A stretch of DNA of 64,000 nt, taken from the sequence record PZ386947.1. The stretch is one strand, 5' to 3'. Shown here piece after piece: positions 9,065 through 59,453 of this stretch. Made by a program: the position numbers and the translations under genes. The notes below the pieces were generated by a model that was not told the DNA's origin, did not search any database, and saw nothing but the letters and a program-made list of their open reading frames with translations. Origin of the DNA: a phage. How positions within the stretch are numbered: position 1 is the stretch's first letter; each line of letters begins with the position of its first letter.

Positions 9065-9092
9065 ATCAATTCCTCAAAGGTAATTCATATGT

Positions 9093-9125
9093 TAATAATA
9101 CCACGGTTTGAACTTGTTGTAAACA
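9093..9125 (-). promoter_or_regulatory. T4-type early promoter (GTTTAC -35, 18 nt spacer, TATTAT -10)
   Basis: minus strand reads aaagttGTTTACaacaagttcaaaccgtggTATTATtaac. Confidence 0.55.
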
Positions 9126-14492: not shown

Positions 14493-14882
14493 TTAATCCA
14501 AAATATTATTAGGCATTGGTTGAACACTCACAAGTTCTTTAAAGAACTCAGTAGAGTCAGGCAATTTAACCATTTCCGGAGCATGCTTACTGAATTTATG
14601 TTTACATTGACGGCATTTATATTCAAGCTCTGGTTTACGCCAGTTAATCAATTGAACTTGTTCAGTACCGCATTCAGGGCAATTAGGAACGTTTTTAGAA
14701 GCTCTTTCACGTCGTTCAACCATAGCCATAATAGCATCCCATGCTGGAGGTTTAAAATCTAAATCGTCGCAGCCGTGAATCTTTCCACGCATTTCCATAT
14801 CATCTTCCTCACCAGCCATAATAATTTTAATTAGACTAGAATTACTTGAAGCTGCAATATCTTCTAATAAACGCTTTTTCAT
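14493..14882 (-). CDS. zinc-ribbon protein
   Basis: 129 aa; CPECG...CRQCK four-cysteine motif. Confidence 0.5.
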
Positions 14883-16858: not shown

Positions 16859-16884
16859 AATAATCTCCTCAGTAGAAAGTAAGA

Positions 16885-16917
16885 ACATTATACCACATCC
16901 TTGTGGCAAAGTAAACT
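16885..16917 (-). promoter_or_regulatory. T4-type early promoter (GTTTAC, 18 nt spacer, TATAAT)
   Basis: minus strand GTTTACtttgccacaaggatgtggTATAATgttc, then GAGGAG and ATG. Confidence 0.6.
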
Positions 16918-19302: not shown

Positions 19303-19830
19303 TTATGCGAGTACCGTCTTTAACCGTTCTTCAAACTTCCGAAGAGTATTCTGGCGTTCAGCTCTTTGCTTTTTGTAAGTTTCAATACGCTCTGAAATGA
19401 GAGTGTATCGTTCATTTACTGATTCTTTCATAAAATCAGGAATTTCACGAGAAGCTTTAATCTCATCAAATTTATCAATAACAGCTTGCTCTTCAGCAAT
19501 TAAGTTATCATACATCAAAATATCTTTCTTGATGAACTCAATATCTTCTTGAGTTACACGAGATAACTTAGATGCTTTATCCTTTTTGTACTGTTCGTTA
19601 GTATCACGAGACCAGTGTAATGTACGATTTTTATTCGTATTCTTGTAAATTTCTACAATACCAATCTCATCAATAATAACGATCCAATTCCAACGAGATT
19701 TGTAAATTTGTCCTCCGTCAACCGTGATTTCACCTCCGATTGAGATGTCATTAAAGAACTTGCTTTGTGCTTCTGATTTAAATTTACCATCGTTGTAATT
19801 TACCAGGTTGAAAATATCTTTAGCGTTCAT
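19303..19830 (-). CDS. hypothetical protein with C-terminal coiled coil
   Basis: ORF track 19303-19890 trimmed to MNAKDIF...; the upstream 20 codons are a translated promoter. Confidence 0.5.
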   Translation of the reverse strand: MNAKDIFNLVNYNDGKFKSEAQSKFFNDISIGGEITVDGGQIYKSRWNWIVIIDEIGIVEIYKNTNKNRTLHWSRDTNEQYKKDKASKLSRVTQEDIEFIKKDILMYDNLIAEEQAVIDKFDEIKASREIPDFMKESVNERYTLISERIETYKKQRAERQNTLRKFEERLKTVLA

Positions 19831-19856
19831 TTTGTGTTCCTCCGTAGTTGATAGTT

Positions 19857-19890
19857 GTATAGTACCACAGAGGAACGGTCTTGTAAACAA
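19857..19890 (-). promoter_or_regulatory. T4-type early promoter (GTTTAC, 18 nt spacer, TGgTACTAT)
   Basis: minus strand GTTTACaagaccgttcctctgtggTACTATacaactatcaac. Confidence 0.6.
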
Positions 19891-20294: not shown

Positions 20295-21281
20295 TTATTT
20301 CAGAAGAGTAACCTCAGCGATTTCTTCCCAACCGTTTTTGTCGGTCATAATAAAGTCAGCAAGATAAAGAGCAGTACGCAGTGAAACATTGCGTAAACGA
20401 TTAACATTGACTTTCATCCATGATAATGCTTTATAAGTTTCTTCATCAGAAAGACCGCGCTTTTGCATCATGTCAGTTGAAAGAATAACATCTTCAACCC
20501 TGACCATAATTTCTTCATTAGTGTGAACACCCAAATCTAAATAAACTGAGCGGGACACTAATGCTTGTAAATGTGGAGCAAGTTTAGTACCACGGTCTAA
20601 TTCGCGGTCAATATCAACGTTTGTGATAAAAACAATCGTTCCTTTAAATTCAAACTCACGCTCAATGCCTTTTTCTTCTAAGTAAGAAGATGCAGTGCTC
20701 CAGCAGACTTTACGGGTCTCTCCGGTGTCCAGAGCAGCTTTCAGAAGATTAAGAATGTCCATATCAGAGAAAACATCCACATCATCAATCAAAAGGACAG
20801 AATTCTCTTCACGATTATTCCAAAGCTGTTCATAAAGACCGATACCAGAGATTTTACCATTAATGCTTTTATACTCAATGTATCCAATATCATTTGCTTT
20901 ATTTAAAGCTTTATCTAAAGAATACGTTTTACCAATACCTGCTGCTCCCGAGATAATTAATGAACGAATGTTTCCGTTAATAATACCATTCGTCATCATT
21001 CCCATAACATTAAATCTTTTATTAATGCGGGTTTTCATATCTTCATACGATTCTTTAACTTCTTCAACTTTTACACCATCATATGAAATGTCTGATTTGT
21101 AAACCCAAACACCGCGACGTTTACCGTCAATTTCAACAAAAACTTTACCATCTCCTTGTGCATCTACCGGAGCATTATCTGGGAACCATTCGCCTAAGAG
21201 CTCAAAAGTTCCAGAGATTTCTTTACCGAAGTAGATACCCTTATTGATAGTTACAGTTTTCATTTTGTTCTCCAATTTCAC
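20295..21281 (-). CDS. P-loop ATPase (AAA-like)
   Basis: 328 aa; Walker A GAAGIGKTY, Walker B VLLIDDVD. Confidence 0.6.
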   Translation of the reverse strand: MKLENKMKTVTINKGIYFGKEISGTFELLGEWFPDNAPVDAQGDGKVFVEIDGKRRGVWVYKSDISYDGVKVEEVKESYEDMKTRINKRFNVMGMMTNGIINGNIRSLIISGAAGIGKTYSLDKALNKANDIGYIEYKSINGKISGIGLYEQLWNNREENSVLLIDDVDVFSDMDILNLLKAALDTGETRKVCWSTASSYLEEKGIEREFEFKGTIVFITNVDIDRELDRGTKLAPHLQALVSRSVYLDLGVHTNEEIMVRVEDVILSTDMMQKRGLSDEETYKALSWMKVNVNRLRNVSLRTALYLADFIMTDKNGWEEIAEVTLLK

Positions 21282-21332
21282 ATTTGTTTTGATAGGGTAA
21301 TAATATCACACTACTACCCTGCTGTAAACAAT

Positions 21333-21596
21333 TTATTTTAATGTTTGCCAAATTTTTACTGCTTCACGACGAGATACTTCTACAGCTCCAAGTTCTACAG
21401 CTTTTTGGCGTCGCCGAGCGTGTAAGTCATAATGTTTAATGCGTTTATCTTGAAACCAAGAACGTTTCATTCCTATTGCTTCTGCCATTTCATGAAGCTC
21501 TTCAATATCTCCATCAGTGAACATATGACAATTTTTAGTTGGATGACCGCGAAGTTTCCATCCATGATTCATTAAAACATCTACGTAAACTGTCAT
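21333..21596 (-). CDS. hypothetical protein (87 aa)
   Basis: ORF track. Confidence 0.5.
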   Translation of the reverse strand: MTVYVDVLMNHGWKLRGHPTKNCHMFTDGDIEELHEMAEAIGMKRSWFQDKRIKHYDLHARRRQKAVELGAVEVSRREAVKIWQTLK

Positions 21597-21742
21597 TGAT
21601 TCTTCTCCAAATAAGTTTCGATAATTTTCTGAGCGAGATAAACTGCATTATCTTCAGTTGCATCTTCTAAGAAACTTTCAAAACACTCTGAAATTTCTTC
21701 TGTGTCAATCAACTTTTTTACTTCAATTGGTGTAATTTTCAT
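21593..21742 (-). CDS. hypothetical small protein (49 aa)
   Basis: ORF track 21593-21811 trimmed to MKITPIEV...; upstream part is a translated promoter. Confidence 0.4.
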   Translation of the reverse strand: MKITPIEVKKLIDTEEISECFESFLEDATEDNAVYLAQKIIETYLEKNQ

Positions 21743-21777
21743 TTTGTTTTTCCGTTTAAGTGTTTGTTTTGATAGTT

Positions 21778-21810
21778 GTATAGTACCATAAAGCTTTATG
21801 CTTGTAAACA
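21778..21810 (-). promoter_or_regulatory. T4-type early promoter (GTTTAC, 18 nt spacer, TGgTACTAT)
   Basis: minus strand GTTTACaagcataaagctttatggTACTATacaactatc. Confidence 0.6.
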
Positions 21811-21831
21811 ATTTTGTGAAAAATTTTTGAA

Positions 21832-21857
21832 ATAAAAAAGGGAGCCCGAAGGCTCCC
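21832..21857 (-). terminator. intrinsic terminator (GGGAGCC-UUCG-GGCUCCC then U-run)
   Basis: plus sequence aaaaaagggagcccgaaggctccc; directly after the nucleotidyltransferase ORF. Confidence 0.6.
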
Positions 21858-21859
21858 TA

Positions 21860-24372: not shown

Positions 24373-24399
24373 TCTCTTCTCCTTGGAAGTTGACAAGAT

Positions 24400-24431
24400 T
24401 ACTATACCATAACCTTGCCAACTTGTAAACC
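24400..24431 (-). promoter_or_regulatory. T4-type early promoter (GTTTAC, 18 nt spacer, TATAGT)
   Basis: minus strand GTTTACaagttggcaaggttatggTATAGTaat. Confidence 0.5.
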
Positions 24432-24792: not shown

Positions 24793-24996
24793 TTACACTC
24801 TCGTATTATGATCGATAATTTCATCAAGAAACATATCTAACGCTTCTATAGCATTATCCACTTTAGTTTCAAAGTCTTTAATGCCTTTATTCGAAATACC
24901 CGATGAATACCAAGCAAAGTCAATCAGCTCTTCATCTGCTTTACGAATTGAAGCCACTAATTCCTTGATTTTATCTGCTTGCTCTATACTAATCAT
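24793..24996 (-). CDS. hypothetical protein
   Basis: ORF track 24793-25032 trimmed to [13 protein letters not shown]... Confidence 0.45.
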   Translation of the reverse strand: MISIEQADKIKELVASIRKADEELIDFAWYSSGISNKGIKDFETKVDNAIEALDMFLDEIIDHNTRV

Positions 24997-25184
24997 TATT
25001 CCACCACATATGACAGAGAGAATATTGCACACGCCATGTGAGTTGCAACTTCATCACACATATCATAACGTTTCTTAAGAAGTTCTACAAGTTCTTCACT
25101 AGTGACTTCATCCATGTCGACGAAAAAATCACCATTAATGATGACATAGATATTTCCTTCTTGATTAAGTGCTTCAATTTTCAT
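24996..25184 (-). CDS. hypothetical acidic small protein
   Basis: ORF track 24996-25229 trimmed to MKIEALNQ...; upstream part is a translated promoter. Confidence 0.45.
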
Positions 25185-25209
25185 GATGTTCTCCTCTTTA
25201 TCCGATGGT

Positions 25210-25243
25210 TGTATAGTACCACAGCTCAAACGGAAAGTAAACC
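25210..25243 (-). promoter_or_regulatory. T4-type early promoter (GTTTAC, 18 nt spacer, TGgTACTAT)
   Basis: minus strand GTTTACtttccgtttgagctgtggTACTATacaacc. Confidence 0.6.
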
Positions 25244-25252
25244 GGTAAAATG

Positions 25253-25274
25253 AAAAAAGTCTCCCGAAGGAGAC
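25253..25274 (-). terminator. intrinsic terminator (GUCUCC-UUCG-GGAGAC then U-run)
   Basis: plus sequence aaaaaagtctcccgaaggagac; directly after ORF 25280-25666. Confidence 0.6.
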
Positions 25275-25279
25275 TAATG

Positions 25280-29378: not shown

Positions 29379-29404
29379 GTTATTCTCCTCTTAACTGATA
29401 GAAA

Positions 29405-29435
29405 AATTATACCACAGTCAAGAGGAAAAGTAAAC
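29405..29435 (-). promoter_or_regulatory. T4-type early promoter (GTTTAC, 17 nt spacer, TATAAT) upstream of regB
   Basis: minus strand GTTTACttttcctcttgactgtggTATAATttttc. Confidence 0.6.
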
Positions 29436-31992: not shown

Positions 31993-32015
31993 TTTATCCC
32001 TCCAAGTAACTGTGA

Positions 32016-32049
32016 ATATACTATCACAATTCTAGGAGAAAGTAAACAA
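32016..32049 (-). promoter_or_regulatory. candidate early promoter upstream of denV
   Basis: minus strand GTTTACtttctcctagaattgtgaTAGTAT; spacer about 19 nt. Confidence 0.4.
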
Positions 32050-35748: not shown

Positions 35749-36012
35749 TTATTTCATATTATTGAAATATTCTTCTGCGATTTCGTCGTTATCATGGTAA
35801 ACTTTAGAAGACAGTTTAACATAACCTTCAGCAGTGAACATGTTAATCACAACCTTTACAGTATACCACTGACCATCTTCATTACCCATTACTGCGTAAG
35901 TTTCAAACATCGGATGGTCAGGACCGATAACTTTAATATCATTCACTGTACGACCGAAATCTTCTGAAACACATTTCATAAAGAAGTTGAACAGCTCACC
36001 GTAATTATCCAT
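35749..36012 (-). CDS. hypothetical protein
   Basis: ORF track 35749-36075 trimmed to MDNYGELFNFF...; upstream part is a translated promoter. Confidence 0.5.
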   Translation of the reverse strand: MDNYGELFNFFMKCVSEDFGRTVNDIKVIGPDHPMFETYAVMGNEDGQWYTVKVVINMFTAEGYVKLSSKVYHDNDEIAEEYFNNMK

Positions 36013-36053
36013 TTCATTCTCCAAGTTGTTTTCTGTATCAGTAGTTGATAGTT

Positions 36054-36086
36054 GTATAGTACCATGGAAGGACAAGGATGTAAACC
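36054..36086 (-). promoter_or_regulatory. T4-type early promoter (GTTTAC, 18 nt spacer, TGgTACTAT)
   Basis: minus strand GTTTACatccttgtccttccatggTACTATacaactatcaac. Confidence 0.6.
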
Positions 36087-36245: not shown

Positions 36246-36253
36246 TAAGAATG

Positions 36254-36727
36254 TTATTTGATTTGTTTAGCAGACCAAATGCGATCTTTAATAATTTTTT
36301 GGATGTCTTCAACATACTCAAGAGAGTGAGCATGTGGATTATCTTTGAAACTATAAGCACGAGCTAGTTTTTGGCCTTCAGTTTTGATTACTAAAAGCTC
36401 TTTAAGGATAGCTTCATATTTGGAGATAATTCCTTTAACAATATTTTTTTCTTGTGCAGCTTTAGGATCTGCTTTAGGAGCAGGTTTACCCGAAGCCTTT
36501 GCAAAAGCAGCGCCAGTAGCAACTAAACTTTTCCAGGCCATACTAACTGCATTTCCCGTAAATCCTTCCGCTTTCATGTCGCGTGCGAACTGGAATCGCG
36601 ATTCATCAGAAGCATCTTTATAAGAATATTTACCCGCTGCAATGGCTGCTTTTGCGACAGCTTGAATTTCGGTGCTAGATGCTTCATTTAACACCGCTTC
36701 ATTTAAAAATTGAGTATATGATTTCAT
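36254..36727 (-). CDS. basic Ala/Lys-rich protein with internal-protein-like N-terminus (candidate head internal protein)
   Basis: 157 aa; N-terminus MKSYTQFLNEA resembles T4 IP capsid-targeting sequence MKTYQEFIAEA; TATAAATA late promoter 36 nt upstream. Confidence 0.55.
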   Translation of the reverse strand: MKSYTQFLNEAVLNEASSTEIQAVAKAAIAAGKYSYKDASDESRFQFARDMKAEGFTGNAVSMAWKSLVATGAAFAKASGKPAPKADPKAAQEKNIVKGIISKYEAILKELLVIKTEGQKLARAYSFKDNPHAHSLEYVEDIQKIIKDRIWSAKQIK

Positions 36728-36763
36728 CTTATTTCCTGTTTTAATTCGTGGTTTTAATATACT

Positions 36764-36771
36764 TATTTATA
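36764..36771 (-). promoter_or_regulatory. late promoter TATAAATA
   Basis: minus strand TATAAATA upstream of ORF 36254-36727. Confidence 0.45.
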
Positions 36772-36800: not shown

Positions 36801-37110
36801 TAAGCCTTGCGGCAACCTTGTCGGGGTTCCACCTGCTAAGGCAAGTGTTTGTACGAAACGCCGGGATTCGAACCCGGTTATTAAGCAGTTGACGCTACTC
36901 AATATTTTTAAAAGGCCATATCTCGACCATATCCGAACGTTCCGTCAAAAACGCTACTCGGCTTACGGCAAAGATATTTCCTCGAATCGATAATTCGGTG
37001 CGCCGTTTCTGCTGTGATGTAAGAGGGCATCAATAAACGCAAAGATTATTAACGCAATTCCTTACTCAGGGAACATCAGTCCGACGACTTACCGGTAGCG
37101 ACCCGGTTTC

Positions 37111-37461
37111 TTAATATTCTTTTAAAGCATCAATCTGTTTACGGCGTTCACGCCATAAATCAATTGCTTCATACGCGGATTCAACATTTCGAATTGGACG
37201 GCATTTATATAAAGATTTGTGATTTTGATATTGCGTAGATAACGGAATTTTATCTAAAAGGTCTTTACGTTCAAAGTATTCGTAACCATCTAAGCCAAAT
37301 GAACGATTTTTGAGAAATTGCCAATGACCAAATTCGTTTTGAATATAAATATAATCCGCATGTTGATAAAGTAAATTAATTTCACGAAATGAGATATGTT
37401 TTTCATATTCATTGAAGTAAAATGTTAAATCATGAACTACTAAATAAACATTACCTTTCAT
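37111..37461 (-). CDS. hypothetical protein (116 aa)
   Basis: ORF track; immediately downstream of tRNA-Arg. Confidence 0.5.
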   Translation of the reverse strand: MKGNVYLVVHDLTFYFNEYEKHISFREINLLYQHADYIYIQNEFGHWQFLKNRSFGLDGYEYFERKDLLDKIPLSTQYQNHKSLYKCRPIRNVESAYEAIDLWRERRKQIDALKEY

Positions 37462-40823: not shown

Positions 40824-40849
40824 TTTATTCTCCTCAGTAGCTGATAGGG

Positions 40850-40882
40850 TAATAGTATCACTACTAAAACCCAATGTAAACA
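40850..40882 (-). promoter_or_regulatory. early promoter, copy 1 of a 4-copy repeat module
   Basis: minus strand GTTTACattgggttttagtagtgaTACTATtaccctatcag. Confidence 0.55.
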
Positions 40883-40884
40883 AT

Positions 40885-41109
40885 TTATTCAACGCCAGCG
40901 GCTTTCAAAAGTTTCTTAAGATTGGCAACACCTTGAGCAGAAAATGTGACCTTGCCACCTTTTTCACTGATAGAACCAACCAATTTAGCAAGTTTATCAT
41001 TAGGAATTTTTTTAAAATCAGCCAATGTTCCATCAAAGGTTTTTGAAACAAAAGGCAGTTCGTCTTCGCGTCTTTTAGCTTCTACAATAAATTCTTGATA
41101 TGTTTTCAT
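40885..41109 (-). CDS. candidate head internal protein (CTS-bearing)
   Basis: begins MKTYQEFIVEA, matching the T4 internal-protein capsid-targeting sequence; GGAAA SD; own promoter copy upstream. Confidence 0.6.
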   Translation of the reverse strand: MKTYQEFIVEAKRREDELPFVSKTFDGTLADFKKIPNDKLAKLVGSISEKGGKVTFSAQGVANLKKLLKAAGVE

Positions 41110-41143
41110 TTTAGTTTCCATTTGAGTGTTTGTTTTGATAGGG

Positions 41144-41176
41144 TAATAGTATCACTACTAAAACCCAATGTAAACA
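41144..41176 (-). promoter_or_regulatory. early promoter, copy 2 of repeat module
   Basis: minus strand GTTTACattgggttttagtagtgaTACTATtaccctatcaaaac. Confidence 0.6.
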
Positions 41177-41193
41177 ACTTTGTGAAAAATTTA

Positions 41194-41481
41194 TTACAAA
41201 AGATTTTTAGCAATAATCTTGAGATGTGCCGCAGAAATGTGTTTAGCTTTAAACAACGCAGTTTCTTCAGCAGGAGAGATAACGATTGTAGCACCATCCT
41301 TTTTAGCAGACCACCCATCGCCTAGGTAAACAGTACCTTTGATTTCTTCGCCATCAACCAGACTAATCATTGGTTTACCTTCTCGTCCTTTATTTGCTTT
41401 AATAACTTCAGAAGTAAGAGTAGCTTCGGTAATAGTAGAAACCGGGGTAGTTGTAGAAGTAAATTCTTTGAAAGTTTTCAT
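41194..41481 (-). CDS. candidate head internal protein (CTS-like N-terminus)
   Basis: 95 aa; begins MKTFKEFTSTTTPVSTITE; GGAAA SD; own promoter copy upstream. Confidence 0.55.
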   Translation of the reverse strand: MKTFKEFTSTTTPVSTITEATLTSEVIKANKGREGKPMISLVDGEEIKGTVYLGDGWSAKKDGATIVISPAEETALFKAKHISAAHLKIIAKNLL

Positions 41482-41509
41482 TTTATTTTCCTAATTAATT
41501 TTGATAGGG

Positions 41510-41542
41510 TAATAGTATCACAACTAAAACCCTATGTAAACA
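41510..41542 (-). promoter_or_regulatory. early promoter, copy 3 of repeat module
   Basis: minus strand GTTTACatagggttttagttgtgaTACTATtaccctatcaa. Confidence 0.6.
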
Positions 41543-41553
41543 ACTTTGTGAAA

Positions 41554-41811
41554 TTATTTTAAATCTTCTAATCGTTTCTTCATCTTAGAACCGTTCTTAG
41601 CGATTTCGCCTGCATCAGAGCATAATGCTAAAAGCGCTTTAACTTTAGTTTGGTCTCCTTTAAAAGATGAAGGATCAACAGCAGCAGCAAGTTCTTTAAT
41701 ACGAGAGAAAAGACGCTCAGCTTCAGCTAAAGCCATTCCAAGCTTTACTTCCATACCGCGGGAAGATTCAGTAATAGTAGTTTTTGTAGCAAACTCTTTG
41801 AAAGTTTTCAT
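41554..41811 (-). CDS. candidate head internal protein (CTS-like N-terminus)
   Basis: 85 aa; begins MKTFKEFATKTTITE; own promoter copy upstream. Confidence 0.55.
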   Translation of the reverse strand: MKTFKEFATKTTITESSRGMEVKLGMALAEAERLFSRIKELAAAVDPSSFKGDQTKVKALLALCSDAGEIAKNGSKMKKRLEDLK

Positions 41812-41839
41812 TTTATTTTCCTAATTAATTTTGATGAGG

Positions 41840-41872
41840 TAATAGTATCACTACCTCATCAGTATGTAAACA
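41840..41872 (-). promoter_or_regulatory. early promoter, copy 4 of repeat module
   Basis: minus strand GTTTACatactgatgaggtagtgaTACTATtacctcatcaa. Confidence 0.6.
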
Positions 41873-41883
41873 ACTTTGTGAAA

Positions 41884-42568
<685 letters not shown>

Positions 42569-53515: not shown

Positions 53516-54512
53516 TTCAAGTGTTATCTATCGTGCGATAGTTACTTCAAAATTTAGAACAGAAAAAATGTTGAATTTTTATAATTCAATTGGGAGTGGT
53601 CCGGATAAAAACACTATCTTTATCACATTTGGAAGATCAGAACCGTGGTCATCAAATGAAAATGAGGTGGGCTTTGCCCCACCTTATCCAACCGATTCTG
53701 TATTAGGCGTAACTGACATGTGGACGCATATGATGGGAACAGTAAAAGTTCTTCCATCAATGCTTGACGCTGTTATTCCTCGCAGAGATTGGGGAGATAC
53801 TAGATATCCGGATCCATACACATTTAGAATTAACGATATTGTAGTGTGTAACTCAGCTCCTTACAACGCTACTGAATCAGGCGCAGGCTGGTTAGTATAT
53901 CGTTGTTTAGATGTTCCTGATACCGGAATGTGTTCAATAGCATCTTTAACTAATAAGGATGAATGCCTCAAATTAGGCGGAAAATGGACTCCTTCTGTTA
54001 GGTCAATGACTCCTCCTGAAGGTCGAGGAGATGCGGAAGGAACAATCGAACCTGGAGACGGATATGTTTGGGAATATCTTTTTGAGATTCCGCCCGATGT
54101 ATCTATAAATAGATGCACAAATGAATATATCGTAGTTCCTTGGCCTGAGGAATTAAAAGAAGATCCAACTAGATGGGGGTATGAAGATAATCTCACTTGG
54201 CAACAAGATGATTTTGGATTAATTTACCGGGTTAAGGCAAATACTATCCGTTTTAAAGCATATTTAGATTCAGTTTACTTTCCTGATGCTGCATTGCCAG
54301 GAAATAAAGGATTTAGACAAATATCAATAATCACAAATCCTCTTGAAGCTAAAGCTCATCCAAATGACCCAAATGTTAAAGCTGAAAAGGATTATTATGA
54401 TCCAGAAGATTTAATGAGGCATTCGGGCGAAATGATTTATATGGAAAATAGGCCACCTATTATCATGGCAATGGATCAGACAGAAGAAATCAATATTCTG
54501 TTTACATTTTAA
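53508..54512 (+). CDS. 8: baseplate wedge protein gp8
   Basis: 334 aa, equal to T4 gp8. Confidence 0.9.
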   Translation: MNDSSVIYRAIVTSKFRTEKMLNFYNSIGSGPDKNTIFITFGRSEPWSSNENEVGFAPPYPTDSVLGVTDMWTHMMGTVKVLPSMLDAVIPRRDWGDTRYPDPYTFRINDIVVCNSAPYNATESGAGWLVYRCLDVPDTGMCSIASLTNKDECLKLGGKWTPSVRSMTPPEGRGDAEGTIEPGDGYVWEYLFEIPPDVSINRCTNEYIVVPWPEELKEDPTRWGYEDNLTWQQDDFGLIYRVKANTIRFKAYLDSVYFPDAALPGNKGFRQISIITNPLEAKAHPNDPNVKAEKDYYDPEDLMRHSGEMIYMENRPPIIMAMDQTEEINILFTF

Positions 54513-57906: not shown

Positions 57907-59453
57907 GTAATAATACATATCAGCACGTATCAAATGAATCAAAATATGTTAAATTCGATCCCATTGGATCGAATTTTCCTGACACTGTTACGACGGTTCA
58001 GTCTGCATTATCAAAAATAAGTAATATCGGCGTAAATGGTATTCCTGATGCAACTATGGAAGTTAAAGGAATAGCAATGATTGCATCAGAGCAAGAGGTT
58101 TTAGATGGAACAAATAATTCTAAAATCGTTACACCAGCTACATTAGCAACAAGATTATTGTATCCAAATGCTACTGAAACTAAATATGGTTTAACGCGTT
58201 ATTCAACAAATGAAGAAACATTAGAAGGCTCAGATAATAATTCATCAATAACACCGCAAAAACTGAAATACCATACTGATGATGTGTTCCAAAATAGATA
58301 TTCGTCTGAGTCATCAAACGGGGTTATTAAAATATCATCTACGCCTGCAGCTTTGGCTGGTGTCGATGATACTACGGCGATGACTCCGCTGAAAACCCAA
58401 AAACTTGCAATAAAATTAATTTCACAAATAGCTCCTTCAGAAGACACTGCAACAGAATCTGTGAGAGGAGTAGTTCAATTATCTACTGTTGCACAAACTC
58501 GTCAAGGAACTCTCCGCGAAGGATATGCAATTTCCCCGTATACCTTTATGAATTCTGTTGCAACACAAGAATATAAGGGTGTTATACGTCTAGGAACACA
58601 AGCAGAAATTAATAATAATTTGGGGGATGTTGCAGTAACAGGTGAAACACTAAATGGTCGAGGAGCTACCGGTTCTATGCGTGGGGTAGTAAAATTAACG
58701 ACGCAAGCTGGTATTGCTCCTGAAGGTGATAGCTCTGGGGCATTAGCCTGGAACGCAGATGTAATTAATACTCGTGGTGGACAAACTATTAATGGTTCTT
58801 TAAATTTAGATCATCTCACAGCAAATGGAATTTGGTCGCGCGGCGGAATGTGGAAAAATGGCGATCAACCTGTTGCCACTGAAAGATATGCGTCCGAAAG
58901 GGTTCCGGTTGGAACTATTATGATGTTTGCGGGTGATTCAGCACCTCCAGGTTGGATTATGTGTCATGGTGGAACTGTGTCAGGAGACCAATATCCTGAT
59001 TATAGAAACACTGTTGGAACAAGATTTGGTGGGGATTGGAATAATCCAGGGATTCCTGATATGCGAGGTCTTTTTGTTAGAGGAGCGGGCACCGGTGGTC
59101 ATATTTTAAATCAACGAGGACAAGATGGTTATGGGAAGGATAGACTGGGCGTAGGATGTGACGGAATGCATGTTGGTGGTGTTCAGGCACAACAAATGTC
59201 ATACCATAAACATGCTGGTGGTTGGGGTGAATATAACAGAAGTGAAGGCCCATTTGGCGCGTCAGTTTATCAAGGATATCTTGGAACTAGAAAATATTCC
59301 GACTGGGATAATGCTTCATACTTCACTAATGATGGATTTGAATTAGGTGGACCGAGAGATGCTCATGGTACACTTAATCGTGAAGGATTAATTGGTTATG
59401 AAACTAGACCATGGAATATATCATTAAACTATATTATTAAAGTTCATTACTAA
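57903..59453 (+). CDS. 12: short tail fiber protein gp12
   Basis: 516 aa (T4 gp12 is 527); position between 11 and wac. Confidence 0.88.

Follow-up and report, generated by a model that had tools for sequence, protein, structure and literature searches.

A core repeated at four early-gene loci of a T4-like phage probably represents one subtype of the T-even early promoter

Why does nearly the same short sequence follow GTTTAC at four separate loci of one phage genome, always on the same strand? We analyzed the whole 64,000-nucleotide stretch that carries the four loci (the window). Over 4 kb around the first motif, the window matches Shigella phage CM8 at 100% identity and hundreds of T4-like phages at about 98%. 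CM8 is itself a T4-like phage (genus Tequatrovirus, Straboviridae). Up to position 42096, subtracting 30243 from a CM8 record coordinate gives the window coordinate. The region corresponds to the counter-clockwise early-gene block, which in T4 has the order nrdC ... mobD ... rI/tk ... regB ... denV ... e ... tRNAs ... ipI. The four sites are, very probably, one subtype of the T-even early promoter (Pe), with a core that selection and recombination of promoter modules would together keep nearly identical.

The pattern GTTTAC-N15-TGGTACTATAC has exactly four matches in the window, all on the minus strand (19857-19888, 21778-21809, 25211-25242, and 36054-36085), and none in 100 dinucleotide shuffles of the window. 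All four sites also fit GTTTAC-N15-TGGTACTATACAAC on the minus strand, with a chance expectation of 0. The original prediction had the same minus-strand sequence after GTTTAC at each of the four. The matches are real, but the full 21-mer, TGGTACTATACAACTATCAAC, is exact at only two of them, 19847-19867 and 36044-36064. At 21768-21788 there is one mismatch, the last base being A. The 25.2-kb site retains 17 of the 21 bases and has only TGGTACTATACAAC-c-ATC in common with the 21-mer. The four sites are as follows.

19847..19888, minus strand: site 1, early promoter of the nrdC.8 homologue, from -36 to +6; the T4 orthologue is identical.
21768..21809, minus strand: site 2, early promoter of the small ORF CM8 gp090, followed by a DUF4031 gene.
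25201..25242, minus strand: site 3, early promoter of the mobD.5 homologue, with the discriminator ACAACC.
36044..36085, minus strand: site 4, early promoter of the e.8 homologue (CM8 gp126).

All four share GTTTAC at -36 to -31, a -35 hexamer TTTAC(A/T), a 17-bp spacer, TGG, and a -10 box TACTAT (-12 to -7). The discriminator ACAAC(T/C) at -6 to -1 comes next and then ATC(A/G), the predicted start being the A of ATCAA. At site 1 these elements are GTTTAC at 19883-19888, TGG plus TACTAT at 19859-19867, and ACAACT at 19853-19858, with a predicted +1 A at 19852 and the real ATG at 19830. The predicted +1 and the ATG are at 21773 and 21742 for site 2, 25206 and 25184 for site 3, and 36049 and 36012 for site 4. 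Upstream lies an A/T-rich UP-like tract, often TTTCACAAA, which reads TTTCACAAAA at sites 2 and 4 and is more T-rich at sites 1 and 3. A generic sigma-70 scan independently called sites 1 and 2 as TTTACA-17-TACTAT with TG. We rejected TATACA as an alternative -10 box; the final T, otherwise invariant, would be missing, and TGn would fall out of register. Start sites that favor NAD capping have the context HRRASWW, which the ACT-A-TCA context at these promoters does not fit.

T4 (AF158101) is identical at the orthologous places, with -12 at 53919 (nrdC.8), 55360 (nrdC.10), 58756 (mobD.5), and 70672 (e.8). The T4 counterpart of site 2 is alike in upstream sequence, spacer, and core but stands ahead of nrdC.10. 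No promoters are annotated in the T4 GenBank record AF158101, and PMC6024815 and the supplements of PMC9161530 hold no usable T4 transcription start or early-promoter coordinates for the four loci. The experimental standing of these loci rests on their assignment to the class, and from their sequence we infer that transcription probably initiates at the four predicted starts.

To scan for further members we used the strict early-promoter pattern GTTTAC-N14-16-TGnTAnnnT, applied for CM8 to the assembled genome. The window has 14 matches against 0.14 expected and the CM8 genome 35 against 0.48. All 35 genome matches are on the minus strand, that of the early genes, with none on the plus strand, and downstream of every match are a short leader and then a Shine-Dalgarno sequence (SD) and an ATG. 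The ACAAC(T/C) core subtype is present in four copies in the window and seven in the CM8 genome, confirming that the core is reused. The identification of the sites as promoters, also part of the original prediction, is borne out as well: early-promoter anatomy, the excess over chance, the bias in strand and position, and identity with T4 all agree. Other early promoters in the window are listed here.

9083..9124, minus strand: strict early-promoter match (-36 to +6), -10 box TATTAT.
16875..16916, minus strand: early promoter of the nrdC.4 homologue, -10 box TATAAT.
21288..21329, minus strand: early promoter of nrdC.10 in this phage, subtype TATTAT-TACCCT, at the downstream boundary of a 493-bp cassette absent from T4.
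24389..24430, minus strand: early promoter with its -10 box in the loop of a 15-bp inverted repeat.
29394..29435, minus strand: regB early promoter, with a spacer that pairs with the leader and SD.
32006..32047, minus strand: denV early promoter, orthologous to the T4 ipIII promoter, with a spacer that pairs with the leader and SD.
40840..41871, minus strand: internal-protein (IP) locus with four tandem early promoters, -12 at 40857, 41151, 41517, and 41847.

The promoter sequence also accounts for a set of odd peptides at the front of mechanically called ORFs. GTIQLSTT had been seen at the head of four ORFs; it is found in two of them (19303..19890 and 35749..36075), the others having GTIQLSK (21593..21811) and GTIQPSD (24996..25229). 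In all four ORFs the start codon is a TTG within or close to the -35 box (in two cases the TTG of ttGTTTAC), and the frame continues to the ATGs given above. These ATGs are the annotated starts in CM8 and T4 and each has an SD before it. As first proposed, the N-terminal extensions are fake, and the 'GTIQLS...' peptides are artefacts of mechanical ORF calling across a promoter. The leaders of the seven ACAAC(T/C) copies in CM8 are 22, 31, 22, 37, 28, 37, and 43 nucleotides long. All are 1 mod 3, which keeps 'GTIQLS' in frame with the true ATG in every copy. In close relatives, 1-nt indels give lengths of 21, 30, and 38, so the regularity looks coincidental. We considered the in-frame lengths as a meaningful feature and set the idea aside as coincidence plus ascertainment through the ORF track, the indels of the relatives breaking the frame.

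A similar extension is present in a deposited annotation. The start of the nrdC.4 homologue (gp082) in the CM8 record is an ATG within the -10 box of its own promoter (TATAATG, window 16886-16888), while T4 nrdC.4 is annotated at the downstream ATG with an SD; gp082 is a deposited-record case of the same false extension. ORF callers can extend T4-like early genes through their promoters, even in deposited records, and masking GTTTAC-N15-TGnTAnnnT would prevent such promoter-derived extensions.

We also examined how far the shared block reaches into the transcript, based on 32 non-redundant strict sites of the CM8 genome, which underlie both the position-wise conservation and the folding counts below. 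With TACTAT as the -10 box, the block common to the four sites ends at +3 to +6 and so includes 3-6 transcribed bases. Among the 32 sites, the conserved positions outside the search pattern include -40 (A in 29), -16 (purine in 32), and -1 (T in 25), and the start region has A at +1 in 26, T at +2 in 23, C at +3 in 21, and A at +5 in 22. Farther up in the UP-like region, -44 is A in 26 of 32. The bases T(-1) A(+1) T C A A are thus common to 20-26 of the 32 early promoters, about two thirds. Being so widespread, T-ATCAA is a general property of early promoters in this genome and does not mark a leader or RNA-processing module.

The identity into the leader had been read as a possible sign of just such a shared regulatory or RNA-processing module, and this part of the original prediction is not supported. 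A conserved RNA-level element, that is, a shared 5' leader with a role in processing, stability, or regulation, would be consistent with identity that runs 3-6 nt beyond the predicted start and with GGAG, the RegB target, in many early leaders including those of sites 1, 3, and 4. However, the transcribed part would be only AUC(AAC), after which the four leaders are unrelated, and the bulk of the 21-mer is upstream of +1. The ATCAA start motif is found at most early promoters. An Rfam scan of the whole window returned six tRNAs only and no family at the motif. Three of the four leaders have no significant structure. The site 1 RNA is unstructured when it starts at +1, and sites 2 and 4 have no significant fold (z -0.75 and +0.97). 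Taken together, these results make an RNA-level element very improbable.

With the early-promoter reading, selection would preserve most positions of the core for their role in contacting the polymerase or fixing the start site. Unmodified host sigma-70 RNA polymerase would use these very strong promoters immediately after infection, each driving a short leader with an SD and a small, mostly non-essential early gene. Polymerase contacts alone do not account for the linked ACAACT discriminator subtype. That subtype is discrete, as C at -5 is found only in the seven ACAAC(T/C) promoters of CM8, all of which also have TGG and TACTAT. The predominant subtype at the IP locus (40.8-41.9 kb) is a second one, TGA-TACTAT-TACCCT-ATCAAAA. 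The promoters of that locus read TGATACTAT-TACC(C/T)(T/C)-ATCA, and each precedes a small IP gene and has an inverted repeat of spacer and discriminator.

A discrete subtype could mean that the -6 to +6 block (ACAACTATCAAC) is an operator through which a phage-encoded factor acts on a subset of early promoters, for example in early shut-off, the mechanism of which is described as unknown (PMC2988021, PMC3014915). Neither a factor nor a palindrome is evident, though, and common descent with gene conversion explains the linkage of positions equally well. Close relatives also exchange ACAACT for TACCCT at the same locus, which argues against a locus-specific regulatory need. Such block switches, the flanks staying as they are, occur at two loci; at one of them (CM8 record position 164673), TACCCT stands in CM8 and ACAACT in a relative. 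We regard an operator as improbable.

The six linked discriminator bases are left unexplained by selection for polymerase contacts, and the comparative data instead point to exchange between promoters. In one relative, TATTATTACCCT replaces TACTATACAACT in the nrdC.8 promoter and the flanks are identical. An exact scan of IMG/VR found the subtype only in T4-like contigs, with 7-8 copies per full genome. The 30 subtype copies from IMG/VR combine about six types of spacer with about seven types of leader in mosaic fashion, identical upstream sequence and spacer being joined to differing leaders and genes across phages. The leader ATCAACTGATACGGATTTGGAGAATAAAATG alone is found before three or more unrelated genes. 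Early promoters also flank a 493-bp insertion relative to T4 (21276-21768), which comprises gp090, the DUF4031 gene, and a second early promoter. On the right it stops at +5/+6 of site 2, and on the left its breakpoint lies in the next promoter's leader, at about +18. Other relatives have a gp090 homologue in a different context without the promoter. At the site 2 orthologue of IMGVR_UViG_2974787500_000001, the -35 box and UP region are deleted while the -10 box and leader are kept, and at the deletion junction the 5' half of the upstream terminator abuts ...TATGGTACTATACAAC.

That terminator is one of two intrinsic-terminator-like hairpins found next to the sites.

21839..21858, minus strand: GGGAGCC-TTCG-GGCTCCC followed by a T-run, directly upstream of site 2.
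25258..25275, minus strand: AGTCTCC-TTCG-GGAGACT followed by a T-run, directly upstream of site 3.

The terminator/UP module of site 2 recurs before two other CM8 copies of the same promoter subtype. A paralogue of the site 3 terminator, with a compensated stem (GGACTCC/GGAGTCC), precedes the promoter at CM8 record position 14879. Sites 1 and 4 lack an upstream stem-loop. Sites 2 and 3 may thus each be a terminator-promoter cassette of the PeSL type, and for site 2 the terminator and promoter together have the appearance of one.

Judged from sequence comparison, the second process keeping the cores alike would be recombination of short promoter modules, with spacer, core, and leader exchanged and homogenized between loci and phages. 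The duplicated promoter-plus-leader module first suggested survives in part: segments are shuffled among loci and phages, but a shared leader module is not supported. It is hardly credible that a recent segmental duplication left the four copies, or that they are a functionless chance repeat. About 60 nt of the promoter regions do cross-match at 77-80% identity in BLAST. Against this, chance predicts 0 matches, the flanking genes are unrelated, and the spacers differ. Every copy keeps the exact GTTTAC spacing and a downstream SD and ATG on a single strand, and the sites are conserved in T4 and other relatives.

Other differences from T4 and from the CM8 record were observed in the window. At 32006-32047 the T4 ipIII promoter is joined straight to denV and the ipIII-ipII cassette is absent. 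The promoter that precedes denV in T4, with its SD-masking inverted repeat, is likewise missing from the window, another promoter-bounded gene swap. In the CM8 record as deposited, 974 bp of the IP locus are duplicated in tandem (IpI-Ip5-57B' repeated, record 71366-73313); the window (about 41100-42100) has no such duplication. Two identical early promoters, at record positions 71394 and 72368, lie exactly one repeat length apart. The duplication could be an assembly artefact or a real promoter-associated duplication, or the window could come from a sister genome. At 36825-37111 are 98%-identical homologues of two small stable RNAs of T4, rnaC and rnaD, which the CM8 record leaves unannotated. 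Compared with T4, about 520 bp (CM8 gp127; window 36249-36768) are inserted between the e.8 promoter region and rnaC, and a T4 segment of about 35 bp has a match on either side of the insertion.

Site 1 differs from the other three in its predicted folding.

19836..19876, minus strand: hairpin predicted in read-through RNA at site 1, with a 13-bp stem, -19.4 kcal/mol, z -4.3.

None of 200 shuffles folds as well. The 5' arm (19864-19876) consists of promoter spacer, TGG, and the first base of the -10 box. The 3' arm (19836-19848) is leader including the SD GGAGG, and the loop is essentially the conserved core. The stem would pair the spacer sequence GUUCCUCUGUGGU with the SD-containing leader sequence ACUACGGAGGAAC. 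The site 1 spacer pairs with its own leader at -20.0 kcal/mol, compared with a cross mean of -7.9. This raises another explanation, that the core is conserved as the loop of a promoter-embedded hairpin that masks the SD in read-through RNA, so that translation would come only from transcripts of the gene's own promoter. The stem is strong while the transcript from +1 is open, and a 68%-identical orthologue (L013) keeps the hairpin architecture with different arm sequences.

Such pairing is not confined to site 1. An inverted repeat brackets the -10 box at many CM8 early promoters. The sense RNA from -36 to the ATG has z<-2 at 18 of the 32 sites, and over the 32 promoter regions sense is more stable than antisense (-13.0 versus -9.3 kcal/mol). 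Spacers pair better with the discriminator and leader of their own promoter (-10.3 kcal/mol) than with foreign ones (-6.5 kcal/mol; Wilcoxon p=0.0012), and at 11 of 32 sites at least 95% of the cross-pairings are weaker than the own one. The 15-bp inverted repeat at 24389-24430 is perfect in T4 (57954-57990) and has two G.U pairs in the window. Both arise from A-to-G changes in the 5' arm and form on the sense strand, the pattern predicted if pairing matters in RNA and not in DNA.

As an account of the four sites the hairpin nevertheless falls short. Sites 2 and 4 have no such pairing. At site 3 the fold is marginal and the arm is altered in relatives without compensation. In a second orthologue (L009), the site 1 hairpin lies around the -10 box and does not reach the SD. 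A hairpin also does not constrain its loop sequence and so cannot explain a shared 21-mer. We consider this explanation of the core unlikely and rejected RNA structure as the cause of the shared core, only site 1 folding significantly and the site 3 arm being uncompensated. A long-range pairing of AGTTGT upstream of the -35 box with ACAACT, seen by eye at site 1 alone and missing at the other three, was also dropped. The predicted hairpin characterizes site 1 and other early promoters, such as those of regB and denV, not the motif.

The folding results do allow a wider, tentative proposal, which we think possible though doubtful. About one third of T-even early promoters, among them site 1 (nrdC.8), regB, and denV of the window, may sit in hairpins of the spacer with the discriminator or leader, often with the SD, of the gene they drive. 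Read-through RNA would then be folded and poorly translated and the local RNA open, with ACAACT and TACCCT as interchangeable gene-conversion patches. If true, the promoter from which a transcript started would determine its translation, all within one temporal class.

Like E. coli sigma-70 promoters with UP, -35, extended -10, and -10 elements, the four sites have the polymerase contacts and the 17-bp spacing. They differ from them in having G at -36, T and not G at -33, and conserved discriminator and start positions. The T4 early promoters (Pe) are reportedly treated by Liebig and Ruger in 1989, Wilkens and Ruger in 1994, and Miller and colleagues in 2003. The T4 early consensus has GTTTAC at -36 to -31, an A-rich -40 to -44 region, and a conserved -10 box (PMC1524935), and the promoters have been termed 'uber UP/-35/TGn/-10' with 'additional regions of consensus' (PMC2988021). 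The CM8 sites share GTTTAC, the A-rich tract, TGn, the -10 box TAnnnT, the extra conserved positions, and the placement on the early-gene strand upstream of early genes, and they are identical in sequence to the T4 loci. Nothing essential separates them from the class, inside which the four are the subtype TGG-TACTAT-ACAACT.

Promoter-early stem-loop (PeSL) cassettes are known from T4-like phages such as RB49 and phi1, where they mediate promoter-based shuffling (Arbiol et al. 2010, PMC2839356). In the T4/PST type, a stem-loop comes immediately before a promoter with the consensus TTTACW-N17-TAYWAT (Comeau et al. 2014, PMC4122927). All four sites fit this consensus as TTTAC(A/T)-N17-TACTAT. 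The likeness extends to the terminator hairpin immediately upstream of sites 2 and 3, to the plastic regions before small ORFs, and to the indel breakpoints and mosaic joins that fall within promoter elements of CM8 and its relatives. Unlike PeSLs, sites 1 and 4 are without the upstream stem-loop, site 1 instead having a predicted hairpin that spans the -10 box. The element is a textbook T4 early promoter and its role as a recombining cassette has been published as the T4/PST-type PeSL. Both are already known, and nothing is added here to the knowledge of T4 early promoters or of PeSL-type shuffling.

Inhibitory mRNA hairpins with an internal late or middle promoter occur at T4 e, soc, 49, and I-TevI (PMC3014915). 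As in those genes, the SD of site 1 is predicted to be paired in longer transcripts, and the transcript of its own promoter is without the 5' arm. The internal promoter of the T4 genes is late or middle, making a temporal switch, whereas that of site 1 has early sequence, and the pairing is absent at sites 2 and 4. Complementarity of the spacer to its own leader and SD is the sole mildly new lead; if functional, it would place translation of early genes under the control of the promoter of origin.
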